Part shown: one piece after another, positions 2,195 to 24,848 of the stretch
How the letters are laid out: each line of letters starts with the position of its first letter
Position numbering within the stretch: position 1 is the first letter of the stretch
Assembly (NCBI RefSeq): GCF_018881775.1
Contig: NZ_JACVPR010000001.1
Coordinates: 1,164,318-1,196,317 of the forward strand
Length of the DNA stretch: 32,000 nucleotides
DNA from: Polynucleobacter sp. MWH-Loch1C5
Lineage (GTDB): Bacteria; Pseudomonadota; Gammaproteobacteria; Burkholderiales; Burkholderiaceae
Direction of reading: 5' to 3'
Made by a program: the position numbers and the translations under genes
The notes under the pieces: generated by a model
What the model saw: only the letters and a program-made list of their open reading frames with translations
Databases searched by the model: none
What the model was told of the DNA's origin: nothing

Positions 2195-4981
2195 ATGTCT
2201 TTAGATTCTCTTTTACTGGTTGACGGTTCCAGTTATCTATACCGTGCTTTTCATGCCATGCCAGACCTTCGTAACTCGCAGGGATTTCCTACGGGTGCGA
2301 TTCAGGGCATGGTCAATATGATGCGCCGCGCCCGTGCAGATTTTCCAGCGAGTCACATCGCCTGTGTTTTTGATGCCAAGGGTAAAACCTTTCGTGATGA
2401 TATGTATCCTGAGTACAAGGCGAATCGTAGTTCTATGCCTGAGGATCTGGCCTTACAAATTGAGGCGATACATCAAGTGGTCAGTGCTTTAGGTTGGCCT
2501 GTACTCGTCGTACCAGGCATTGAGGCTGATGATGTGATTGGTACTTTGGCTTGCCAAGCTTCTCACTTAGGTTGGAGCACAGTGATCTCTACCGGTGATA
2601 AAGATCTAGCTCAGTTAGTCACGGATCAAGTGACATTAATTAACACCATGACTGCTGAAAAATTAGATGTGGCTGGTGTGACCCAAAAATTTGGTGTGCC
2701 CCCCAATCGAATTGTTGATTACCTGAGTATTACGGGGGATGCTGTTGATAACGTACCCGGTGTACATAAAGCGGGCCCCAAAACTGCTGTGAAGTGGCTC
2801 ACTGAGTTTGGCGATTTAGACACCTTGATGAGTCGGTCAGCGGAGGTAAAAGGGGTGGTGGGTGAAAATCTGCGCACGGCTTTACCGTGGCTACCCAAGG
2901 CGCGTGAGTTATTAACAGTGAAGACGGATTGTGATTTAAATGATCATGTACCGCATCTGGAGAAACTGCGAGCGGCACCTGAAGATCGTGATCGATTGAA
3001 GGAATTATTTACTCAATTTGAGTTTCGTTCTTTATTACGCGATCTTGAAAAACATACTCATCTCAGTGGCGATGCCCCTCTGCCACCTCAGGCCGTAGAG
3101 GGTGCCGGTGGTGCGAGCATCACGATCCCTGCTTCTGCAGACTTATTTGGTTATGTGGCAGAGCATGATGCACAGCCTATTGCTAGGCATTATGAGTGTG
3201 TCACTACCCTAGAGCAATTACAAAAATGGCTCCATCAAATTGAGACTGCAACTTTAACGAGTGTCGATACGGAAACGAATAGCTTAGATCCTATGCAAGC
3301 TGAGTTAGTGGGTATTTCTTTATCGTTAGAGTCGGGTCTTGCTTGCTATATTCCGGTAGCACATACCACCCATGAGCAACAATTGGATAAGCAAACAGTT
3401 TTAGACAAGCTTAAGCCATGGTTAGAGAGTGAGCATCATCACAAGTTAGGGCAAAACCTCAAATATGACTGGCATGTATTTAAAAATGTAGGCATCACTT
3501 TGCGAGGTATTGCGCATGACACGCTCTTGCAATCATATGTCTTAGAATCACATCGGTCCCATGATATGGATAGTTTGGCCAAGCGTCATTTAGGCGAGAC
3601 CACGATTAGCTATGAGCAAGTTTGTGGAAAAGGGGCTCATCAAATTACTTTTGATCAAGTTGCGCTAGAGCAAGCGACTGCTTATGCAGCCGAAGATGCT
3701 GACATTACTCTGCGCTTGCATCAAGCCTTGCAAAAAGGCATGCAGTCAGAGCCTCGCCTGAAAGAGGTTTATGAAAAGATCGAGATGCCTGCCATGAAAG
3801 TATTGGCTCGCATGGAGCGTGAGGGTATTTTGATTGATGTGGAGCGGCTCGGTAAGCAGGCACAAGAGTTAGGTCACCGCTTACTGTCTTTGGAAAAACA
3901 GATCCACGAGCTCGCTGGGCAGCCATTTAACATCCAGTCACCCAAGCAGATTGCTGAAATTTTATTTGAGCGCTTGGAGCTTCCTGTGGTGAAAAAAACG
4001 CCATCTGGAGCGCCGTCGACGGACGAAGAAGTCCTGCAAAAACTGGCTGAGAATTATCCATTGCCTGCCAAAATTTTAGAGTATCGAAGTTTGGCTAAAT
4101 TGCAATCGACCTATGTTGAAAAATTGCCACGTATGATTAACCCACAAACTGGACGAATTCATACGAGTTTTTCGCAGGCGGTTGCGGTCACTGGCCGTTT
4201 GGCATCGAGTGATCCCAATTTACAAAATATTCCGGTTCGAACCGAAGAAGGTCGCAAGATCAGAGAGGCATTTATTGCTCGACCTGGTTGTCAATTAGTT
4301 TCTGCGGACTATTCGCAGATTGAGTTACGCATCATGGCGCACATTGCTGAAGATGAAAACTTGTTAAAAGCATTTGCAGCAGGTGAGGATATTCATAAAG
4401 CGACCGCAGCAGAGATGTTTCATGTCTCTTTAGATCAGGTGAATACTGAGCAAAGACGTTATGCCAAAGTGATTAACTTTGGATTAATTTATGGCATGAG
4501 TGCATTTGGTTTGGCTGGTAATTTAGGCATTGAGCGCTCAGCGGCACAGCAATATATTGATACTTACTTTGCACGTTATCCTGGCGTTGCTCAATATATG
4601 GCACAAACTCGAGAACTCGCTAAAGCCAGAGGTTATGTTGAGACTGTCTTTGGACGCCGTTTATGGTTGCCTGAAATAAAGAGTCCTCAGGCCATGCGTC
4701 GTCAAGCAGCGGAGCGAGCAGCAATCAATGGGCCTATGCAAGGTACTGCTGCTGATTTGATTAAATTGGCCATGATTGCAGTTCAGAAATGGTTGGATGA
4801 AGAAGGCTTAAAATCGAAACTATTGTTACAAGTGCATGATGAATTGATATTGGAGACTCCGGAAGAAGAGTTGGCTTTAGTAAAAAAACATCTGCCTGAG
4901 CTAATGACTGGTGTGGCGCAATTAAAAGTGCCGCTCCTTGTTGAGGTAGGGGTGGGTATGAATTGGGAAGAGGCGCATTAG
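2195..4981 (+). CDS. polA: DNA polymerase I
   Basis: 5'-nuclease N-terminus (LLLVDGSSYLYRAFHA), 3'-5' exonuclease motif (VDTETNSLD), and polymerase motifs A (DYSQIELRIMAH), B (RRYAKVINFGLIYG) and C (QVHDELI). ATG at 2195 is preferred over the TTG at 2180 used by the ORF track. Confidence 0.97.
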   Translation: MSLDSLLLVDGSSYLYRAFHAMPDLRNSQGFPTGAIQGMVNMMRRARADFPASHIACVFDAKGKTFRDDMYPEYKANRSSMPEDLALQIEAIHQVVSALGWPVLVVPGIEADDVIGTLACQASHLGWSTVISTGDKDLAQLVTDQVTLINTMTAEKLDVAGVTQKFGVPPNRIVDYLSITGDAVDNVPGVHKAGPKTAVKWLTEFGDLDTLMSRSAEVKGVVGENLRTALPWLPKARELLTVKTDCDLNDHVPHLEKLRAAPEDRDRLKELFTQFEFRSLLRDLEKHTHLSGDAPLPPQAVEGAGGASITIPASADLFGYVAEHDAQPIARHYECVTTLEQLQKWLHQIETATLTSVDTETNSLDPMQAELVGISLSLESGLACYIPVAHTTHEQQLDKQTVLDKLKPWLESEHHHKLGQNLKYDWHVFKNVGITLRGIAHDTLLQSYVLESHRSHDMDSLAKRHLGETTISYEQVCGKGAHQITFDQVALEQATAYAAEDADITLRLHQALQKGMQSEPRLKEVYEKIEMPAMKVLARMEREGILIDVERLGKQAQELGHRLLSLEKQIHELAGQPFNIQSPKQIAEILFERLELPVVKKTPSGAPSTDEEVLQKLAENYPLPAKILEYRSLAKLQSTYVEKLPRMINPQTGRIHTSFSQAVAVTGRLASSDPNLQNIPVRTEEGRKIREAFIARPGCQLVSADYSQIELRIMAHIAEDENLLKAFAAGEDIHKATAAEMFHVSLDQVNTEQRRYAKVINFGLIYGMSAFGLAGNLGIERSAAQQYIDTYFARYPGVAQYMAQTRELAKARGYVETVFGRRLWLPEIKSPQAMRRQAAERAAINGPMQGTAADLIKLAMIAVQKWLDEEGLKSKLLLQVHDELILETPEEELALVKKHLPELMTGVAQLKVPLLVEVGVGMNWEEAH

Positions 4982-7542: not shown

Positions 7543-8645
7543 GAATTTTCGTAGGCCATCACTTTGCGATACCACTCATGAAAGTGTTGCATACCATCTT
7601 CCATAGGGGATTGATAGGGCCCCACTTCATTTTCGCCACGCTCGAACAATGCTTTACGACCCGCATCCATGCGTTCAGCAATTTCATCATCTTCGATACA
7701 GGTTTCCATGTAAGCGGCACGTTCAGCTTCGATGAACTCGCGTTCGAATAGGGCGATTTCTTCTGGGTAATAAAACTCAACAATATTGCGCGTCTTATTA
7801 ATTCCCATTGGTTGTAATGTGGAGATACATAAAACACCGGGATACCACTCCACCATGATGTTGGGGTAGTAGGTCAGCCAGACTGCGCCATATTTTGGCA
7901 GTTGACCATTGTGATGACGCAAGACGGCTTCATGCCAGCGCGCATAGGTGGGTGAGCCAGCCTGTTGTAAGCCTTTATGAATACCGACAGTCTGAACGCT
8001 AAACCAGTCTTCAAATTGCCACTGTAAGTCATTGCACTCGACAAACTTCCCAAGACCTGGATGAAATGGTACTACGTGATAGTCCTCGAGATAGACTTCG
8101 ATAAATGTTTTCCAGTTGTAGTTACAGTCATGTACTTCAACATGATCAAGCATATAACCGGAAAAATCCAAGTCTTTGGCAATGCCTAAGTTTTTTAAAT
8201 CTTGATGCACATCGCGCGGACCTTCAAAGAGTAAACCTTGCCAATTTTGTAGAGGTGTCTTACCTAGGTTCAAGCAAGGCTGTTCTGCAAAATGAGGCGC
8301 ACCCATCAGTTCGCCGTTGAGTTGATATGTCCAGCGATGGAGTGGGCAAACAATATTTTGTGTATGACCTTTGCCATTGAGCATGATTGCTTGACGATGG
8401 CGGCATACGTTAGACAATAATTCAACACCCTGCGTGTTGCGAACTAGAACTCGACCCTCATTTTCAGCGCTTAAAGTTTGGTAATCCCCAATTTCAGGCA
8501 CCATAAGTTCATGCCCAATATAACCTGGGCCTTGTTTGAACAGTAGTTCAATTTCCTTGTTGTAGAGCTCAGTATCGAAATAAGCCGATACTGGCAGTTG
8601 TAGCTTGGACGGCGCAAGATGCTGCGCGGTAGCTAGATTAGTCAT
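7539..8645 (-). CDS. Rieske [2Fe-2S] aromatic-ring-hydroxylating oxygenase alpha-subunit-like protein
   Basis: Rieske motif CRHRQ...(17 aa)...CPLHRW followed by a C-terminal catalytic-type domain. The start is ambiguous between ATG 8645 and GTG 8654. Confidence 0.8.
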   Translation of the reverse strand: MTNLATAQHLAPSKLQLPVSAYFDTELYNKEIELLFKQGPGYIGHELMVPEIGDYQTLSAENEGRVLVRNTQGVELLSNVCRHRQAIMLNGKGHTQNIVCPLHRWTYQLNGELMGAPHFAEQPCLNLGKTPLQNWQGLLFEGPRDVHQDLKNLGIAKDLDFSGYMLDHVEVHDCNYNWKTFIEVYLEDYHVVPFHPGLGKFVECNDLQWQFEDWFSVQTVGIHKGLQQAGSPTYARWHEAVLRHHNGQLPKYGAVWLTYYPNIMVEWYPGVLCISTLQPMGINKTRNIVEFYYPEEIALFEREFIEAERAAYMETCIEDDEIAERMDAGRKALFERGENEVGPYQSPMEDGMQHFHEWYRKVMAYENS

Positions 8646-9022: not shown

Positions 9023-9903
9023 CTCATCTTCCATCAGAGCTTGAGCAAGCTGCATGCACGATCGAGCAGCGCTTACAAGATACTTTTAAACAATCATCGC
9101 TAGCTCCCCGTTTATGGGAAGCGATGGAATATGCCGTCATGGGTGGCGGTAAACGTATTCGCCCACAATTGGTGTTAGCTTCGGCAGCCCTGAATGGCCG
9201 GGGTTTGCTACAAGAAGCTGCTTTAGACGCGGCTGTGGCGATCGAGTTGTTTCATACCTACTCGCTAGTACATGATGATTTACCTGCGATGGACAACGAT
9301 GATTTTCGTCGTGGTCGCCCCACCGTTCACAAAGTTTTTGATGAAGCTACAGCGATCTTGGTAGGAGATGCGCTACAAACATTAGCTTTTGAAACTATTT
9401 TGCAATCTCAGCACATCGGGTATGAGCAAAAAGTTGATATCTTGACTGTCATGACTCAAGCGGGTGGGGCTGAGGGCATGGCCGGTGGTCAAGCCATTGA
9501 TTTGGAGCATGTGGGGCAGGCGATGGGTTTGACTGAGCTTGAGCAAATGCATCGCATGAAAACGGGCGCTTTGCTCAGGGCATCTGCTGTGATGGGCGGT
9601 ATTGCGGGTGGCTTGGGACGAGCCCAGATTGACGCTTTAGATCGTTATGCAAGTCATTTAGGGTTGGCATTCCAAGTCGTAGATGATGTCTTAGACGCCA
9701 CGATGGACTCGGCTACATTGGGTAAAACAGCCGGAAAAGATGCCCTTGCAGAAAAGCCAACCTATGTCTCTTTATTAGATTTGGACAAGGCGAGAGCTTT
9801 TGCGAGAAAATTACACCTTGCCGCTATTGCGGAAATTAAAGACGAGGACCATGCCAGTTTCTTGTTAGCAATTGCTGATAGAGTAGTTGAGCGTTCCAAT
9901 TAA
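9019..9903 (+). CDS. ispA: Farnesyl-diphosphate synthase
   Basis: First Asp-rich motif [14 protein letters not shown] and second motif VVDDVLD. GTG at 9019 overlaps the xseB stop (GTGA). The upstream part of the ORF-track ORF overlaps xseB and is probably not translated. Confidence 0.9.
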
Positions 9904-18935: not shown

Positions 18936-18977
18936 GGGCCCTTAGCTCAGTTGGTTAGAGCAGAGGACTCATAATCC
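18936..18977 (+). pseudogene. 5' half of split host tRNA (CAT anticodon, tRNA-Ile2/ileX-like)
   Basis: GGGCCCT-TA-GCTC-AGTTGGTTA-GAGC-A-GAGGA-CTCATAA-TCC gives the acceptor 5' strand, D arm, anticodon stem 5' strand and loop. The sequence then diverges into island DNA (ATTCACCCGG...). Confidence 0.85.
18968..18977 (+). repeat. attL core (CTCATAATCC)
   Basis: Identical 10-mer at 24695-24704. It corresponds to the anticodon loop plus 3 nt of the split tRNA. Confidence 0.75.
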
Positions 18978-19139
18978 ATTCACCCGGATTGTCCAAAGCT
19001 CTAAAATCCAGTAAAATAAAGGCTTACAGCGTTTTTTTACAAATAAAATCTGCTTACACACCACTTACACACTTTTTCAGCTTTTTAGGGGTGGTTTTGT
19101 GGAGGTTAGCAGCAGTAGTGAAATGAAGGGGGTGTGGCG

Positions 19140-19307
19140 ATGTATAAGGCGCAATACAAAGCGAACAACGCATATGAGAGTTGGACGAACATCGGCACAT
19201 ACAGCAGTGAGAGTGAAGCGATGAATGTGGCGATGAAGAAAAAGAACAGCGGCGCACTGATGGTGAGAGTAATCGATAGAAACGGCAGCGTGGTGTATTC
19301 AGGTTAA
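19140..19307 (+). CDS. 55-aa hypothetical protein (MYKAQYKANNAYESWTNIGTYSSESEAMNVAMKKKNSGALMVRVIDRNGSVVYSG)
   Basis: Read by hand; below the ORF-track size cutoff. ATG is preceded by AAGGGGG 8 nt upstream. It has the island-type T-poor codon usage and ends 9 nt before the element tRNA. Confidence 0.45.
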   Translation: MYKAQYKANNAYESWTNIGTYSSESEAMNVAMKKKNSGALMVRVIDRNGSVVYSG

Positions 19308-19316
19308 AACACAAAA

Positions 19317-19391
19317 GGGCCTATAGCTTAATGGTAAAGCAGGCGACTCATAATCGCTTGAGTGCTGGTTCGATTCCAGCTGGGCCCACCA
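19317..19391 (+). tRNA. Element-encoded complete tRNA with CAT anticodon (Ile2/k2C-type candidate; elongator Met not excluded)
   Basis: 75 nt: GGGCCTA-TA-GCTT-AATGGTA-AAGC-A-GGCGA-CTCATAA-TCGCT-TGAGT-GCTGG-TTCGATT-CCAGC-TGGGCCC-A-CCA. All four stems pair, with one G-T in the acceptor. C4-G69 and C5-G68 are present. No C1-A72 initiator feature. Confidence 0.85.
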
Positions 19392-19400
19392 AATACATAC

Positions 19401-19430
19401 AGAGCTGCTACCGATAGCAGCTCTTTTTTT
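19401..19430 (+). terminator. Rho-independent terminator after element tRNA
   Basis: Perfect 10-bp stem AGAGCTGCTA / TAGCAGCTCT, loop CCGA, followed by a T run. Confidence 0.75.
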
Positions 19431-19481
19431 GTCTGCGGTGTTTTGATTGTCCAAACTATTTAATGACACTACAGTAGCGAT

Positions 19482-20843
19482 ATGCCAGAGCAAAAAGAAA
19501 CGACACACACACTGATTGAGCGTTCGCTGATCGTGTATCGGCGTGAGCGCAGCAGCATATGGCAGTGTCGATACAAGGTTGATGGCGTATGGCAACGAGC
19601 ATCGACAAAAGAGAGCGACTTAAAAAAAGCCAAAGCACGGGCAAACGAACTGTTGATGGAAGCAGTAATACGCAAACGCTCAAATCTGCCTGTTATTACA
19701 CGCAAGTTTAGAGATGTGGCACGGCTGGCAGTGGAGCGGTTAGAGCACGAGATTGCGATCGGCAAAGGCAAGCGCAGCTACACAGACTACATACGGGTGA
19801 TTAACGATTATCTAATCCCGATATTAGGCAGAAAAGCGATAACAAGCATCGACTACCAAGCATTAGACGAACTGAACGAAAAACGCACAGCGATGATGGA
19901 AAAAGTGCCGACACAAAGCACGATGCTGACGCACAACGCAGCACTGAATCGTGTGTTTGACGAAGCGGTAATACGGGGATTTTTAACAGAAGCGAATAAG
20001 CCAAAGTTAGAAGCGACAGGCAAAAAGAGTGAGCGCAGAGCAGCGTTTGATATAAATGAGCTGCGGGCACTGCTGGCTAACTTTGATGGGTGGATTGAAG
20101 CGGCACGCACAGCGCAGAGCAAAGAGATGCGAACATTACTGCGTGATTATGTGGATGTGCTGATTGACACTGGCGCACGACCAGGCGACGAACTGTTGAA
20201 CTTACAGTGGCGACAGATCAAGTTTGCGATGAAACCGATACTGACGCACACAGGTGTGATTGATAACACAGACGATCAGCACGAAGAAATAACGCTTCCA
20301 AACCTAAATCGCAGCGTAGAGCTGGTCGTCAGCGGCAAAACAGGCACACGCACGATCGTGGCGATGAATAGGACGGTTAAAGCATTAGAGCGCATCGCAC
20401 TGCGCAACTACGACATTGATGACAGCATTGTCGATCCATTTAAGCAGCTAACAGTGCCGACAAACAAAGACTATGTGTTTAGGACACTAGATAAGCAGCC
20501 GCCGACAAGCTGGCAAAAGATGTTTGAGAGCTACTTAAAGGAACACAACTTACTGATTGACCCGATTACTGGCAACAAGCGTGTGTTTTACAGCCTGCGA
20601 CACACATATGCGACATTAGCACTGACAAACGACAAAGTGCCAATACACACGCTGGCAAAGCAGATGGGCACAAGTGTGCTGATGATCGAAAAGCATTACA
20701 GTCATCTTAAAGTCGTCCAAGCGATTGACCAGCTGCGTGGCGAAGAGACACGCAAACTCATTGATGCGGGTGGCGTGGTCGATGAGACTTACACAAGTCA
20801 GCGCAAGCTAAAGAAACAAGCAGCGCAGAAAAAGAAGGCATAG
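19482..20843 (+). CDS. int: Tyrosine-type site-specific integrase
   Basis: 453-aa ORF with catalytic-domain motifs DTGARPGDELLNLQW (Arg I), SLRHTYATLAL (His-x-x-Arg) and IEKHYSHL (Tyr). A long N-terminal arm/core-binding region is present. It lies next to attL. Confidence 0.9.
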   Translation: MPEQKETTHTLIERSLIVYRRERSSIWQCRYKVDGVWQRASTKESDLKKAKARANELLMEAVIRKRSNLPVITRKFRDVARLAVERLEHEIAIGKGKRSYTDYIRVINDYLIPILGRKAITSIDYQALDELNEKRTAMMEKVPTQSTMLTHNAALNRVFDEAVIRGFLTEANKPKLEATGKKSERRAAFDINELRALLANFDGWIEAARTAQSKEMRTLLRDYVDVLIDTGARPGDELLNLQWRQIKFAMKPILTHTGVIDNTDDQHEEITLPNLNRSVELVVSGKTGTRTIVAMNRTVKALERIALRNYDIDDSIVDPFKQLTVPTNKDYVFRTLDKQPPTSWQKMFESYLKEHNLLIDPITGNKRVFYSLRHTYATLALTNDKVPIHTLAKQMGTSVLMIEKHYSHLKVVQAIDQLRGEETRKLIDAGGVVDETYTSQRKLKKQAAQKKKA

Positions 20844-20858
20844 TATTCTTACTATGCC
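20837..20858 (+). terminator. Hairpin overlapping integrase stop codon (possible terminator, no T run)
   Basis: GGCATAGTA-TTCT-TACTATGCC forms a perfect 9-bp stem. No downstream U tract, so its function is uncertain. Confidence 0.3.
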
Positions 20859-20960
20859 TGTCATCTGTGTCAGCGTCGATTATTTTTACGCATCTCAAAC
20901 CGCTTAAATATTGCTCTTTAGCGTCGTTTGACTGGATTTATGGTGAGCACGGCTGTTGTT

Positions 20961-21131
20961 TTATTGCGTGGCAAGCTGGGCTAACTGCTGCTGTGTTTTG
21001 CGAAGCTTTAAGGTAAGCGCAGCACGACGGGCAGATTTAGCAGCAGCTTTGGCAGCACTCTGTTGCGCTTTGACACGCTGTGTGTCGGCGTTTAAGTTTG
21101 CTGTTGGACTGACGACTTCTGCGATACGCAC
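20961..21131 (-). CDS. 56-aa Lys/Ala/Gln-rich hypothetical protein
   Basis: GTG start at 21131 is preceded by a perfect AAGGAG 7 nt upstream and lies 28 bp after the stop of the 146-aa gene. The ORF-track ATG at 21218 would overlap that gene. Confidence 0.45.
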   Translation of the reverse strand: MRIAEVVSPTANLNADTQRVKAQQSAAKAAAKSARRAALTLKLRKTQQQLAQLATQ

Positions 21132-21159
21132 TGCGCTTCTCCTTAATGTGTAGCAGTAT

Positions 21160-21600
21160 TTAATCGTTGGCAAAACCTTTGCGCAGCGCAATGCTGGCCG
21201 CTTCGATCTGTGCGTCAAGTTCGCCGTTGCTGATAGCGGACTTAATCAGTTCAAGCGTAGGCACGATATCTTTGCTGTTTGCGATCTCTACTGCCGTTTT
21301 GCCTTTAGCTAACTCAAGTGTTCGTGCGCCGTATTTGATATGGACGCAGAGTTTGCCGTTGTCCGCTACAAAAGTCCAAGCCTTAACAGTTTTGGCAACT
21401 TCGGCTGTTTTACGCAAACCAGTGTCAGCGTCTGTGTAGCTGCGCAGGCGTGTAGCGGTATAGGCAGTGCCGTTTTGCTGTGCTGTGGCTAATGCGATTT
21501 GCTCATCTACTCTGCGCAGCAGTTTATGGCGACGGGCAAGCACAGGGCTGATGTGAGAGGGCTTTTTGGCTGTGGTTAGTTTTAGCTGTGAAAGTGTCAT
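21160..21600 (-). CDS. 146-aa conserved-looking hypothetical protein
   Basis: ATG at 21600 (MTLSQLKL...) follows AAAAGGAG. The sequence is non-repetitive and globular-looking (…RLRSYTDADTGLRKTAEVAKTVKAWTF…LELAKGKTAVEI…GELDAQIEAAS). I recall similar proteins in genomic islands (possibly a DUF family) but cannot verify this. Confidence 0.7.
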   Translation of the reverse strand: MTLSQLKLTTAKKPSHISPVLARRHKLLRRVDEQIALATAQQNGTAYTATRLRSYTDADTGLRKTAEVAKTVKAWTFVADNGKLCVHIKYGARTLELAKGKTAVEIANSKDIVPTLELIKSAISNGELDAQIEAASIALRKGFAND

Positions 21601-21753
21601 TTTTGCTCCTTTTTTGCGATGTGAAAAAAGCACTACGCACAGCACGATATGACCTGAAACGCAGGCTGGACAAGAGTTTTGAGGGCAAAAAGACGGGTTT
21701 GAGCAGAGATGGGAAAAATATTTTGGTTTTCCTGTTCAAACATAAATAACTGT

Positions 21754-22317
21754 ATGAAAGCCATACATACAGCACAGCACAAAGCAGCTTATATCGCAGC
21801 GCAGCACGACTACCTACAGCGTGTAGCGCAGCACTGCGACTACGCCATCACGCTACAGACCAGCTTACGCACAGCAGGCATTAAGGCACGCACGATGGAG
21901 GGCAGGCTATACAAGGCACAGGGCAGCTTACGGCAGCTGCGCAACAAGCTTAACAGGCTACTGACAGGCAACGGCTATAAGCGCAACAACAGGTATTTGC
22001 CAGTGTTTGTGGCTGCGATAGAGGGCACGACAAACGACTACGACTTAAACAGGACGCTACACATACACATAGCATTAGGCAACACAGGGCATACGGCAAC
22101 AGAAGAAACACGCAGGCTATTAGAAGACGGCATTAGGCAGATATGGGCAGCGACAGATGTAGGCACAGCAGATGTAAAGGTGGATAGGCTGACAAAAGGC
22201 ACAGAGAACAGGTGGATGGGCTACATAGGCAAAGAGGCACACACGGGCAGCACAGGCAACACAGGCGTTATTGACTACAGCAACACGCAAATCCCAGCAC
22301 ATTTACTACAAGACTGA
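21754..22317 (+). CDS. Putative HUH-superfamily rolling-circle replication initiator/nickase (inovirus Gp2 / YagK-YfjJ-like)
   Basis: Ordered motifs are AITLQT (motif I-like), TLHIHIALG (His-hydrophobic-His) and MGYIGKE (YxxK). The start is ambiguous between ATG 21754 and ATG 21709. Assignment rests on motifs only. Confidence 0.55.
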   Translation: MKAIHTAQHKAAYIAAQHDYLQRVAQHCDYAITLQTSLRTAGIKARTMEGRLYKAQGSLRQLRNKLNRLLTGNGYKRNNRYLPVFVAAIEGTTNDYDLNRTLHIHIALGNTGHTATEETRRLLEDGIRQIWAATDVGTADVKVDRLTKGTENRWMGYIGKEAHTGSTGNTGVIDYSNTQIPAHLLQD

Positions 22318-22412
22318 CTACAAGCAAAGACAGGCAGGCAACAACATAGGCAAGCGTGTGATTTGACGCAGCGTTAATCGCACGACATTTACAGTTTGAT
22401 AAGAGCGATGCT

Positions 22413-22510
22413 GACACTGGCGACAGTGTTAGTTGGATATGCTTTGTCTAAACATTGTCAAACACTGAACAACACACTCAAACACAATAAGACAACACTG
22501 GAACACTGAC
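22413..22510 (+). promoter_or_regulatory. Hairpin plus 10-bp-phased AACA repeats (candidate Rep-binding iterons/origin)
   Basis: Inverted repeat GACACTG-GCGA-CAGTGTT at 22413-22430. AACA then begins at 22451, 22461, 22471 and 22481, with AACACTG at 22461, 22494 and 22502. It lies about 100 bp downstream of the Rep-like gene. Confidence 0.35.
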
Positions 22511-23047
22511 ACACAGCACAGATACACAATGAACGAACAGTGAATGACAACGGCGACGCAGTGAAACAAAGACACAGCACAGATAGAGATACAGAGGAAT
22601 ACGAAGCAGCAACAAGCAGCACTGTGGTCAAAAATCAGCACATTGATGAAAAATGGGCTATTGCTGAAAAACGCAGCACGGATTTTTAGGGCTACAGCTG
22701 AAAACTGGGTAAGTAGCACACGCAGAGCAACGCACACAGCGCATAGCAAGCACTCAAAACGCTTCTATGCGCTGTTTTTACGCTTTTCGAATAGCAATAC
22801 AGCAGCGCAGTGCTACAAACAGCGTGTAGGGCGTTTTACAGCATCTGTGCTTGTGGCTTTTTGACTACGGATACACGCAGAGCAGCGGTAAATATGTATG
22901 AACAGGAAATACGCAAAAACTGTTCAAACCGTGTAAGCCGTTGATTTTTGGAAGGTCTTTGCGAATCAAAAAGAGGTAGGAAAAACTTTGAAAAGAAAAC
23001 AAACTGTGTGTAGCAATAAATGTTCAAAACCGAAGGAGAGCTACACA

Positions 23048-23614
23048 ATGGCACAAGCAGCAACATTAGACGCACAGCAGCTACAGCGGGTATTAGACTG
23101 CCTGAAAACACGCAGGCACTACAGGCGCAACAGGACGATGATTTTGCTGACGCATTGGTCGATGTTGCGTGTAGGGGAAGTAGCAGCACTGCGCTACTGT
23201 GATGTGTTAGACAGCGATGGGCAGATATTAAGTGAGACCGTGCTGGCAGCAGAGCAGACAAAGGGCGATCGGAGCAGGCGTATTTGGTTTAATGAGCGTA
23301 TGCGGTCAGAGTTGGCAGCGTATGTGGCAGCACACAAGCCCAAATACAAGACACAGAGGCTCTTTTACACGCAGCGCAGTGAAGGCTTTACGGCAAATAC
23401 GCTGACACACATTATCAACGGCATCTACAGCCAAGCGGGCATCGCAAACGCATCATCACACTCTGGCAGGCGCAGTGGGCTGACTACACTGGCAGATAAG
23501 GGTGTGAGTGTGCGGGTGCTGATGGCGTTAGCAGGACACAGTCAAATCGCTACTACACAGCGATACATTGATCTGCGTCCCAGCGTCGTTAGGGCTGCGG
23601 TGGAGTTGGTTTAG
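23048..23614 (+). CDS. Small tyrosine recombinase (catalytic domain only, 188 aa)
   Basis: ATG is preceded by GAAGGAG. Catalytic residues are present: LRVGEV (Arg), TKGDRSR (Lys hairpin), HSGRRS (His-x-x-Arg), GHSQIATTQRYI (His, Tyr). There is no N-terminal DNA-binding domain. Confidence 0.85.
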   Translation: MAQAATLDAQQLQRVLDCLKTRRHYRRNRTMILLTHWSMLRVGEVAALRYCDVLDSDGQILSETVLAAEQTKGDRSRRIWFNERMRSELAAYVAAHKPKYKTQRLFYTQRSEGFTANTLTHIINGIYSQAGIANASSHSGRRSGLTTLADKGVSVRVLMALAGHSQIATTQRYIDLRPSVVRAAVELV

Positions 23615-24468
23615 GAAAGCTTCGAAATAACTATTTCTTCACCACGACAGGTAAATCGTGTAAGAGCATTTTTGTGGGAATGTGAAATCCAACCTCTCGA
23701 AGCAAAATAGATAAGAGCGGCGTGCGCATCAATGCTTACAAAGGCGTCATCATCTGAAATATGTTCATACTTCTCCCACAAACTAAAATCTGGCTCGAGC
23801 TTCAAATATTCGAGTGGCAACGGACTATTTGAAATGTAGAGTTTGACTTCACGAAGCAGTCGAGATGGTATTGAGCAAAGCATACGAAAAATAAGATTAT
23901 TACGGACTGGAATCAAGAACTTCCCTATTTTTTCTGAAACGTTAAGTTCCGAGTAGGGTCTTTGTTCGAGCTTCTTTACGGTCCAAGGGCGACAGTTCCA
24001 GGCTGGACTTAAAACAGCGATTCCATTTGGCTTCAGTATTCTTTCGATCTCTTTAAAAGCTTTTTCAACTTCTGGAATATGCTCTAAAGCGGCAAAGGAA
24101 AAAATAAAATCTACAGATGACGGCGCAAGCGGCAAGGCTCGCGCATCCCCTTCAAAAATATTCAAGTCACTTCCATAAAGTTCTTTTGCCAACGCTACAG
24201 CAGTATTGGAATATTCAAACCCTTTCCAGTTTTTATGGCTGGTATTCAAGTGCCCAAGACCGCAACCGATCTCGATTACCACGGCGTCATCAGTTATCTG
24301 GTGCTGCTTTAAATATTTTTTTACGACTTCCAGCTGTGCGTTGGGCCTTTCTGACGTTTTTTTCTGGTTGTCAAAAGAGCCGTAGTTATGTCCGTCGGCC
24401 TTATACACATCAGAATAAAGTTGCTTTGTGTCAAGTTTTTGACCTTCGCTTAGATTTGTTTGAACCAT
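23611..24468 (-). CDS. Class I SAM-dependent methyltransferase, substrate unknown
   Basis: 285-aa ORF with motif I VIEIGCGLG, then FEGDARALPL, DFIFSFAALEHI and LKPNGIAVL. It also has a ~110-aa C-terminal region of unknown function. Composition is AT-rich and host-like, unlike the rest of the element. Confidence 0.85.
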   Translation of the reverse strand: MVQTNLSEGQKLDTKQLYSDVYKADGHNYGSFDNQKKTSERPNAQLEVVKKYLKQHQITDDAVVIEIGCGLGHLNTSHKNWKGFEYSNTAVALAKELYGSDLNIFEGDARALPLAPSSVDFIFSFAALEHIPEVEKAFKEIERILKPNGIAVLSPAWNCRPWTVKKLEQRPYSELNVSEKIGKFLIPVRNNLIFRMLCSIPSRLLREVKLYISNSPLPLEYLKLEPDFSLWEKYEHISDDDAFVSIDAHAALIYFASRGWISHSHKNALTRFTCRGEEIVISKLS

Positions 24469-24694
24469 TGTCGTTACCGTTGTGTCTATAAGTTATAGTT
24501 AGTTTAACAGCGCACAGCAGAGCAGCATAGAGTTTTGGCTGTGCGCAGAGCATTACTTAAGTGATACATTGCGGTTGCGCTGTGTCTTTCATTGTGTAGC
24601 AGCATAGTGCGCATTTGCTTACACACTTTGCTACACACCAAAAATAATCACGCTATTAGCCGCATAAATGCTGGATTTATTTTGAGTGTCTTTT

Positions 24695-24704
24695 CTCATA
24701 ATCC
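24695..24704 (+). repeat. attR core (CTCATAATCC)
   Basis: Direct repeat of 18968-18977. Confidence 0.75.
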
Positions 24705-24739
24705 TTTGGTCCGCGGTTCAAGTCCGCGAGGGCCCACCA
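24695..24739 (+). pseudogene. 3' half of split host tRNA (CAT anticodon)
   Basis: CTCATAA-TCCTT-TGGTC-CGCGG-TTCAAGT-CCGCG-AGGGCCC-A-CCA. The acceptor 3' strand pairs 7/7 with 18936-18942. Confidence 0.85.
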
Positions 24740-24746
24740 GTATGTC

Positions 24747-24774
24747 AAAAAGCCACCCTTTGAGGTGGCTTTTC
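24747..24774 (+). terminator. Rho-independent terminator of the original tRNA gene
   Basis: AAAAGCCACC / GGTGGCTTTT stem-loop immediately after the tRNA 3' end. Confidence 0.7.
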
Positions 24775-24848
24775 CATTAATACATTTTCATTGGCAAATT
24801 TATTCATAAGGTATAGGATATAAATACCATTCTATATAGGGGGGTGTT

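Follow-up and report, generated by a model that had tools for sequence, protein, structure and literature searches.

We analysed a 32-kb stretch of the Polynucleobacter sp. MWH-Loch1C5 genome (the window, to which all transfer RNA (tRNA) searches of this strain were confined), in which a small integrase-bearing element occupies a host tRNA gene. Downstream of rpoD (838 aa), 7 nt past the stop codon, begins a tRNA-Ile2(CAT) gene, which is interrupted within the anticodon loop by a 5,727-bp insert bounded by CTCATAATCC, of which the window holds exactly two copies, at 18968 and 24695. An earlier reading of this DNA from its letters (the sequence-only reading) had proposed that an integrase-bearing element splits a tRNA-Ile2-type gene next to rpoD in its anticodon loop, and that the left and right attachment sites (attL and attR) have only 10 bp in common. 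The first point agrees with the phrog_1 assignment of the integrase, the position of the insert and the Escherichia coli tRNA-Ile matches given below, and the second with the two copies of the core. A complete tRNA(CAT) gene inside the insert, at 19317-19391, had been overlooked. The features concerned are:

18936..18977, plus strand: 5' part of the host tRNA-Ile2(CAT) gene, comprising the acceptor 5' strand, D arm, anticodon stem 5' strand and anticodon loop plus 3 nt; equal to nt 1-42 of the intact gene in contig L001
18968..18977, plus strand: attL common core CTCATAATCC, the 7-nt anticodon loop plus TCC
19054..19072, plus strand: two TTACACAC repeats at about 77-95 bp from the core, on the P' side; candidates for arm-type integrase sites
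19317..19391, plus strand: element-borne complete tRNA-Ile2(CAT), 75 nt, with CCA (ARAGORN; Rfam tRNA 73.5 bits, E = 3.9e-15)
19401..19431, plus strand: intrinsic terminator of the element tRNA, a 10-bp stem then a T run
19482..20843, plus strand: divergent tyrosine integrase, 453 aa (phrog_1 integrase, E = 2.4e-33; weak XerA match)
24619..24638, plus strand: two (T/C)TACACAC repeats at about 57-76 bp from the core, on the P side; candidates for arm-type sites
24695..24739, plus strand: attR core CTCATAATCC and 3' part of the host tRNA-Ile2 gene, comprising the anticodon stem 3' strand, variable loop, T arm, acceptor 3' strand, A73 and CCA; matches L001
about 24745-24775, plus strand: host tRNA terminator, a hairpin and T run 3' of the tRNA part at attR

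The window and its two junctions were scanned with ARAGORN and with the Rfam tRNA model (gathering score, 29 bits). ARAGORN found no tRNA at either junction, and the sole tRNA that it reported in the intact window was that at 19317-19391. With Rfam, the left junction (18936-18995) reached 23.7 bits, under the gathering score, and the right junction gave nothing. After in-silico deletion of the DNA between the cores, ARAGORN accepted a 77-nt tRNA(CAT) with a 7-bp acceptor stem, a CTCATAA loop and an encoded CCA. The flanks were compared with metagenome contigs sharing the window's phasin protein with exactly equal sequence. Three of these (L001, L004 and L006) carry rpoD, an intact 77-nt tRNA(CAT) at 7815-7891 and the phasin gene with no insert, and the rejoined tRNA, its flanks and its terminator equal the intact tRNA of L001 base for base. 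Because such empty-site contigs are 97.6-99.8% identical to the window flanks, the insert is present or absent within one species. Both the split and the empty site are thus observed directly, and the sequence-only reading was borne out in its expectation that neither junction holds an intact tRNA, that the joined halves give a 77-nt tRNA(CAT) with a 7-bp acceptor stem and encoded CCA, and that related genomes have an empty site.

A second kind of variation was seen at the same rpoD-phasin tRNA site. Contigs from other strains of the species (L002, L003, L005, L007 and L008) have a 4.3-kb block upstream of the phasin gene (for example, 3766-7940 of L002), which encodes a patatin, a DUF3302 protein, a membrane-fusion protein and an outer-membrane factor, with no integrase. 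Where the tRNA is in view (L002, L003, L005 and L007), the block begins directly after the CCA of the intact tRNA and displaces the terminator.

The two tRNAs of the window are of one kind. Both have a CAU anticodon, a G1-C72 pair (not that of an initiator), C4-G69, C5-G68 and A73. The best E. coli matches of each are genes annotated as tRNA-Ile, with 84-86% identity along the whole length, and the E. coli match that was inspected for the rejoined host tRNA adjoins rpoD-mug. C4-G69 and C5-G68 are reportedly determinants for TilS in E. coli. Judged by these identity elements and by the E. coli matches, host and element tRNAs are both assigned to the AUA-decoding tRNA-Ile2 type rather than to tRNA-Met, with putative lysidine modification.

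The element tRNA lies 340 bp from the left junction, in the same orientation as the broken gene and 91 nt upstream of the integrase gene. Its anticodon stem is GGCGA/TCGCT, so that it reads CTCATAATCG and not the att core. The hairpin at 19401-19431 is the only plus-strand terminator-like site detected from rpoD to the integrase gene. The sequence-only reading had held that the host gene is inactivated and not regenerated: it is split and rebuilt at neither junction, as claimed, whereas the implied loss of function did not stand, since the element carries a complete tRNA-Ile2(CAT). We compared eight distinct element tRNAs, and the results showed that all 22 cloverleaf pairs are kept, that eight pairs have compensatory double changes and that C4-G69 and C5-G68 are invariant. 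The tRNA-Ile2 type of the element tRNA is thus observed to be conserved, and the pattern of change indicates selection on these molecules as working tRNAs. Weak Rfam matches to ASdes, BjrC1505 and Plastid-ycf2 were dismissed as chance, being below threshold or on the antisense strand of the tRNA.

The integrase was identified through PHROGs, and the motifs GARPGDE, LRHTYAT and KHYSHL, read from its sequence, are tyrosine-recombinase motifs; Pfam at E = 0.01 and a sequence search of the PDB gave no match. No relative above 35% identity was found in 50,697 phage records or in IMG/VR. The best phage relative reached 25% identity, and IMG/VR held only two distant relatives. By these comparisons, the lineage appears unrelated to the actinophage integrases, and outside the superfamily as such no relation to phage integrases is detectable. 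An integrase of predicted catalytic activity (phrog_1) thus sits on an insert within host tRNA-Ile2, the arrangement of a host attachment site (attB) in a tRNA gene.

The attachment site of the element itself (attP) was seen directly in a relative. In L021, the right end of the element, CTCATAATCC and the left end of the element are contiguous, with no tRNA stems flanking the core. For the window element, the predicted attP is …GAGTGTCTTTT-CTCATAATCC-ATTCACCCGG…. Repeats similar to the candidate arm-type sites are present in L021, L027, L033, L035 and L050, and ACACC is conserved at about -60 in every attR compared.

The integrase has 1,866 homologs. To place the element among its relatives, we scanned one genome per species, which gave 80 loci, mostly from Burkholderiales; counts of the recurring design are lower bounds. 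The close relatives L009-L016, all metagenome contigs, have a gene order equal to that of the window element, and L012 and L013 carry a distinct 77-nt version of the element tRNA. Junctions like those of the window, in host tRNAs of different sequence, were found in L009, L010, L012, L013, L018, L019, L022, L023, L026 and L038, and the attL core CTCATAATCC recurs in L009, L010, L012, L018, L019, L023 and L026. In the window and in 6 of the 80 survey loci, an orphan host 5' half with the core at its end is followed by an intron-less element tRNA(CAT) 86-103 nt upstream of the integrase gene. Where the loci are long enough, the host halves rejoin to a valid tRNA across inserts of 5.6-9.0 kb. At least 26 of the 80 loci, mostly from Burkholderiales, carry a tRNA-Ile2 at a split tRNA-Ile2, and in the loci examined the element tRNA stands just downstream of the orphan 5' half, in equal orientation. 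Equal junction sequences in many independent assemblies and hosts, together with the clean empty site of L001 and the attP junction of L021, speak against an assembly chimera, or a rearranged duplicated tRNA locus without insertion of a mobile element; this explanation has nothing in its favour beyond being a general possibility, and we regard it as extremely improbable.

Relatives adjoining tRNA-Lys genes, with integrases at 45-56% identity, have a different layout. In L069, L072 and L075, a direct repeat spans tRNA-Lys nt 31-32 to nt 76-77, and in L042 the exact repeat ends at nt 71; no second tRNA was found in any of these four loci. Their repeats point to the classical layout, in which attP supplies the tRNA's 3' half. 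Classical tRNA-targeting islands and prophages are likewise said to cross over in the anticodon loop. The core of the tRNA-Lys relatives, CT(C/T)TTAATCC, resembles that of the window, and from the repeat layout and this similarity the family as a whole appears to target the anticodon loop. The window element shows none of the marks of a classical tRNA-regenerating island, namely an attP carrying the 3' part of the tRNA, an intact tRNA at one junction and, as a direct repeat, a displaced piece of the tRNA at the other. Comparison of these loci indicates that, across the family, carriage of a cognate tRNA goes with failure to rebuild the target, a link that is observed directly.

We consider it very probable that the locus reflects tRNA-dependent integration, in which the element splits host tRNA-Ile2 and replaces its function with its own copy. 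The integrase would have recombined an attP sharing only CTCATAATCC with the host tRNA-Ile2(CAT) gene, with crossover in the anticodon loop. Because attP is without the tRNA's 3' half, the host gene would be left as two dead pieces, for which the complete element tRNA (19317-19391) would compensate by supplying AUA decoding. The element tRNA would plausibly be transcribed from the rpoD side, like the original gene, and end at its own terminator, since there is no plus-strand terminator between rpoD and the element tRNA. It would then be expressed, lysidine-modified and needed for AUA decoding in the host. The integrase may still be active, and precise excision would restore the host gene.

Decay of such elements can be seen in L022 (9643-9700), where attL has CTCATAAGCC in place of the core and the left end has lost about 30 bp. 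Because its attL has decayed, this copy is probably immobilised, and its tRNA would now be the host's only tRNA-Ile2 at that locus. The window element could in the same way be a fixed relic that no longer excises and whose tRNA has permanently taken over as the host tRNA-Ile2, which would fit the failure to find its circular form. Yet both cores in the window are intact, the tRNA halves match the unsplit gene of conspecifics base for base, the integrase open reading frame (ORF) is full length, and genomes with flanks 97.6-99.8% identical differ in whether they have the element. We therefore think a fixed relic quite improbable, if less so than a chimera.

Codon usage bears on another explanation. 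ATA makes up 28% of Ile codons in the element genes versus 7% in the flanking host genes; there are 8 ATA codons in four host genes of the window and 10 in the integrase gene alone. Use of ATA by the host genes is in keeping with a host need for the tRNA. The figures for the element suggest that its own expression leans on tRNA-Ile2, and would suit a tRNA carried as accessory cargo, for the AUA-rich genes of the element or against tRNA-targeting defences, in a host with another tRNA-Ile2 to which the split is harmless. The confinement of the tRNA search to 32 kb of the genome leaves room for this, and an anti-defence role has been raised for phage tRNAs (PMC10865867). Cargo of this kind is hard to reconcile with a carried isotype that always matches the split target, at no fewer than those 26 loci, with the four verified classical tRNA-Lys relatives that have no extra tRNA, and with a tRNA that, in the loci examined, closely follows the orphaned 5' half and is co-oriented with it. 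Polynucleobacter genomes have about 40 tRNA genes and little redundancy; since a complete one has only 40 (PMC10353399), a redundant tRNA-Ile2 is unlikely. We consider accessory cargo unlikely, though the least improbable of the alternatives to tRNA-dependent integration.

Several observations weigh against tRNA-dependent integration, or against parts of it. Only 32 kb of the genome were examined, and a second chromosomal tRNA-Ile2 is possible outside the window. No gene with exactly the window's integrase sequence is on record elsewhere, and neither an attP nor a circular form of the exact window element was found. In L021, taken as a closed circle, the joint of its end and its start is crossed by an ORF whose start codon could lie on either side, so that L021 is no more than a candidate circle. 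The arm-site motif YTWCACAC has 5 matches window-wide versus 3.9 expected, with no enrichment by count; the candidate status of the arm sites comes from their position and from similar repeats in relatives, not from that count. In L038 (9603-9909 and 18665), the element tRNA equals the rejoined host tRNA, an exception to the recoded stems that is at odds with self-avoidance, discussed below; this identity suggests recent capture or gene conversion.

The novelty implied by the sequence-only reading did not hold, as the design was published in 2024 as tRNA-dependent lysogeny. In actinobacteriophages (Fionnbharth, LeBron and Gaia), as described by Guerrero-Bustamante & Hatfull (mBio 2024; PMC10865867), the common core is of about 10 bp, a phage tRNA of the same isotype is needed for lysogeny and the host tRNA is not reconstructed; tRNA-Ile2-CAT cases with 9-10 bp cores are known from the Gordonia phages OneUp and Mollymur. 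The window element shares with that system a tyrosine integrase with attB in a host tRNA gene, a short core (8-17 bp in the phages, 10 bp here) from which the tRNA is not rebuilt, a carried tRNA cognate to the split one (here the tRNA(CAT) at 19317-19391, 73.5 bits), relatives at tRNA-Lys that rebuild their target with 40-50 bp cores and carry no tRNA, and putative arm-type sites on either side of the attP core. It differs in that the carrier is a 5.7-kb non-phage element, that the hosts are freshwater Betaproteobacteria, that the integrase is of an unrelated lineage and that the position of the replacement tRNA is always between attP and int, in the orientation of the broken gene. Dependence on the carried tRNA, as seen in the actinobacteriophages, is for this element a prediction from sequence. 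The principle is therefore known, and what is new is a carrier that is tiny and not a phage, the lineage of its integrase, the group of hosts and how widespread the design is. The authors of the 2024 study asked how common tRNA-dependent lysogeny is outside actinobacteriophages (PMC10865867), and the same solution is met here in an unrelated integrase lineage, a minimal non-viral element and highly abundant freshwater bacteria (Polynucleobacter, Limnohabitans and relatives).

Two further systems are comparable. Classical tRNA-targeting genomic islands, collected by a fragment-based search in the Islander database (PMC4383910), likewise have an integrase gene adjoining a tRNA and crossover in the anticodon loop, and L042, L069, L072 and L075 are fully classical; the window attP, unlike theirs, is without the tRNA 3' half and leaves no functional tRNA at attL. 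Because the repeat is only 10 bp, island finders that seek a displaced tRNA fragment, such as Islander, probably miss these elements. In Sinorhizobium meliloti, prophage-related sequences are reported, on the basis of sequence analysis, to substitute a host tRNA gene (PMC11476347; see also PMC12429752), so that there, too, an integrated element in Proteobacteria brings a tRNA replacing an inactivated host tRNA. That case, as described, concerns phage-related sequences in an alphaproteobacterium, without an established link to tRNA-Ile2 or to the integrase family of the window. In practice, tRNA annotation will list the element's tRNA as though it were the host's, and loss of the element other than by precise excision may cost the host AUA decoding, which would be an unusual route to retention.

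Many relatives carry their tRNA-Ile2 in interrupted form. At about 27 of the 80 loci (L027, L031, L032, L035-L037, L039, L045, L050-L060, L062, L063, L065, L079, L080, L085, L090 and L091), the tRNA-Ile2 adjoining the integrase gene is interrupted in the anticodon loop, inside the att core (for example, L035 9611-9900), and for this reason is missed by ARAGORN. The insertions lie after U36 (CTCAT|AATCC; 198-222 nt) or after U33 (245-250 nt). With the Rfam group I intron model RF00028 (gathering score, 50), L050 scored 57 bits, above the gathering score, L035 scored 45.4 bits (E = 2.5e-10), and the U33-type intron of L062 gave a weak 24.4 bits (E = 3.6e-4). In-silico splicing, after a U and with a terminal intron G, yielded a canonical tRNA(CAT) of 75-77 nt at 25 loci. 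At 20 intron loci, the orphan 5' half of a host gene also stands 180-250 nt upstream. The displaced 3' half of the host gene in L027 and L039 has no intron and a different T stem, which places the intron-bearing tRNA on the element there. By its sequence and the RF00028 scores, the U36-type intron appears to resemble the Azoarcus intron. The likeness to the Azoarcus-type group I intron in pre-tRNA-Ile(CAU) concerns these relatives, with introns after U36 or U33, and not the window tRNA, which has no intron.

In the window clade, the element tRNAs instead have a recoded anticodon stem, reading CTCATAATCG or CTCATAATTC. The differing stem may keep the element tRNA from being a target of its own integrase, and either device, intron or recoded stem, would stop the element's own tRNA from serving as attB. 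Such self-avoidance would fit a proposal for Archaea, as summarised by the papers that cite it, in which disruption makes tRNA genes resistant to integration (Randau & Soll 2008, cited in PMC4390854 and PMC3293823). We put protection forward as a hypothesis, because the element tRNA of L038 equals the host tRNA and because, in one Polynucleobacter clade, the displaced host copy is itself intron-containing, with crossover at the exon-intron border. The intron as an absolute protection against integration is ruled out by the displaced, decayed intron-plus-exon-2 copies of L050.

Tandem orphan 5' halves and decayed intron-plus-exon-2 remnants were found in L050 (2440, 8660, 8893, 15140 and 17401) and L056 (5722 and 8584), and L050 has a second integrase gene (2718-3842), the product of which is 33% identical to that of the window. 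The arrangement suggests successive insertions at one tRNA-Ile2 locus, and also a clade that would target an intron-containing gene at CTCATA. A joint reading, which we offer tentatively and think somewhat unlikely to hold in full, is that the family contests one tRNA gene, each element destroying the resident tRNA-Ile2 and installing a copy made integrase-resistant by a recoded anticodon stem (in the window clade) or by a self-splicing group I intron at the crossover. Through such gene replacement, the elements would carry Azoarcus-type introns into the tRNA-Ile2 loci of Betaproteobacteria, and the boundary of exon and intron would have become the new target of some integrase clades. If true, bacteria would for the first time provide evidence for the old proposal of tRNA introns as a guard against integration, and the intron-bearing relatives offer a natural system on whether introns protect tRNA genes from integrases.

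Two loci depart from these layouts. In L033 (9002-9820; CP012157.1, Betaproteobacteria bacterium UKL13-2), a perfect 159-bp tandem repeat of 5.2 copies, whose unit starts with the first 19 nt of the tRNA, runs into tRNA-Ile2, followed by arm-like repeats and an integrase gene (62% identity), in a layout that looks classical. In L020, on a contig labelled as a Nitrospira sp. metagenome-assembled genome, the core CTCATAATCC at 9213 follows non-tRNA DNA unlike other right ends, which could mean that the site is a secondary one, that the right end differs or that the contig was mis-binned.

Besides the tRNA, the element encodes two tyrosine recombinases, a DUF6641 protein, three ORFs that are small or unknown and a single cargo gene that can be swapped. 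Those other than the integrase gene are:

19134..19307, plus strand: small conserved ORF, 55-57 aa, between the P'-side arm repeats and the element tRNA; no family match
20961..21131, minus strand: small ORF whose counterparts in relatives have 56 aa, with gene calls in L009, L010 and L012-L016; coordinates offset-transferred; no family match
21160..21645, minus strand: DUF6641 protein (Pfam PF20346, E = 7.7e-14; phrog_31551, of unknown function)
21709..22317, plus strand: conserved 202-aa ORF with homologs in relatives; no family match
22988..23614, plus strand: second tyrosine recombinase, Xer-like and short (188-208 aa), with no more than the catalytic domain (Pfam Phage_integrase, E = 2.5e-24; phrog_216, E = 3.9e-38; PDB matches XerC-like, XerA and XerD)
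23611..24468, minus strand: cargo, a class I S-adenosylmethionine-dependent methyltransferase in a variable slot (Pfam Methyltransf_11, E = 5e-18)

No virion or lysis genes were found in these 5.7 kb. The PHROG matches are to integrases, methyltransferases and families of unknown function, plus one marginal major-head match without a significant matched stretch. By its size (5.7 kb), its PHROG content and an integrase with no close phage relative, the carrier is judged not to be a temperate phage or prophage.

The backbone is shared widely. Its DNA is 81-92% identical in L009, L010, L012 and L026, up to the stop codon of the short recombinase gene. Homologs of the 202-aa ORF have 63-96% identity in ten window-clade relatives and 26-30% in L042, L036 and L035, which points to a backbone common to the whole family, tRNA-Lys and intron-clade elements included. 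The motifs LHIHIAL and WMGYIGKE of this ORF resemble those of HUH and YxxK rolling-circle proteins. Assignment as an HUH Rep or relaxase is no more than possible, as the second His of LHIHIAL is not kept in the distant homologs L042 and L036 (HYN and HVN) and Pfam gave no match; a single-sequence AlphaFold2 model of the ORF was unusable (predicted local distance difference test score, 39.7).

The cargo slot (window 23615-24500) varies in content among L009, L010, L012, L021 and L026, holding methyltransferase genes, a PglD-like acetyltransferase gene or unknown genes, and the short recombinase may service it; a search for repeats flanking the slot gave only weak inverted repeats. L026 has an additional 2.45 kb near window position 23060. 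The ORF at 20961-21131 is a possible excision factor. The protein of the ORF at 19134-19307 is 89-100% identical in L009, L010, L012, L018, L019 and L026, and its counterpart in L020 is broken by a stop codon.

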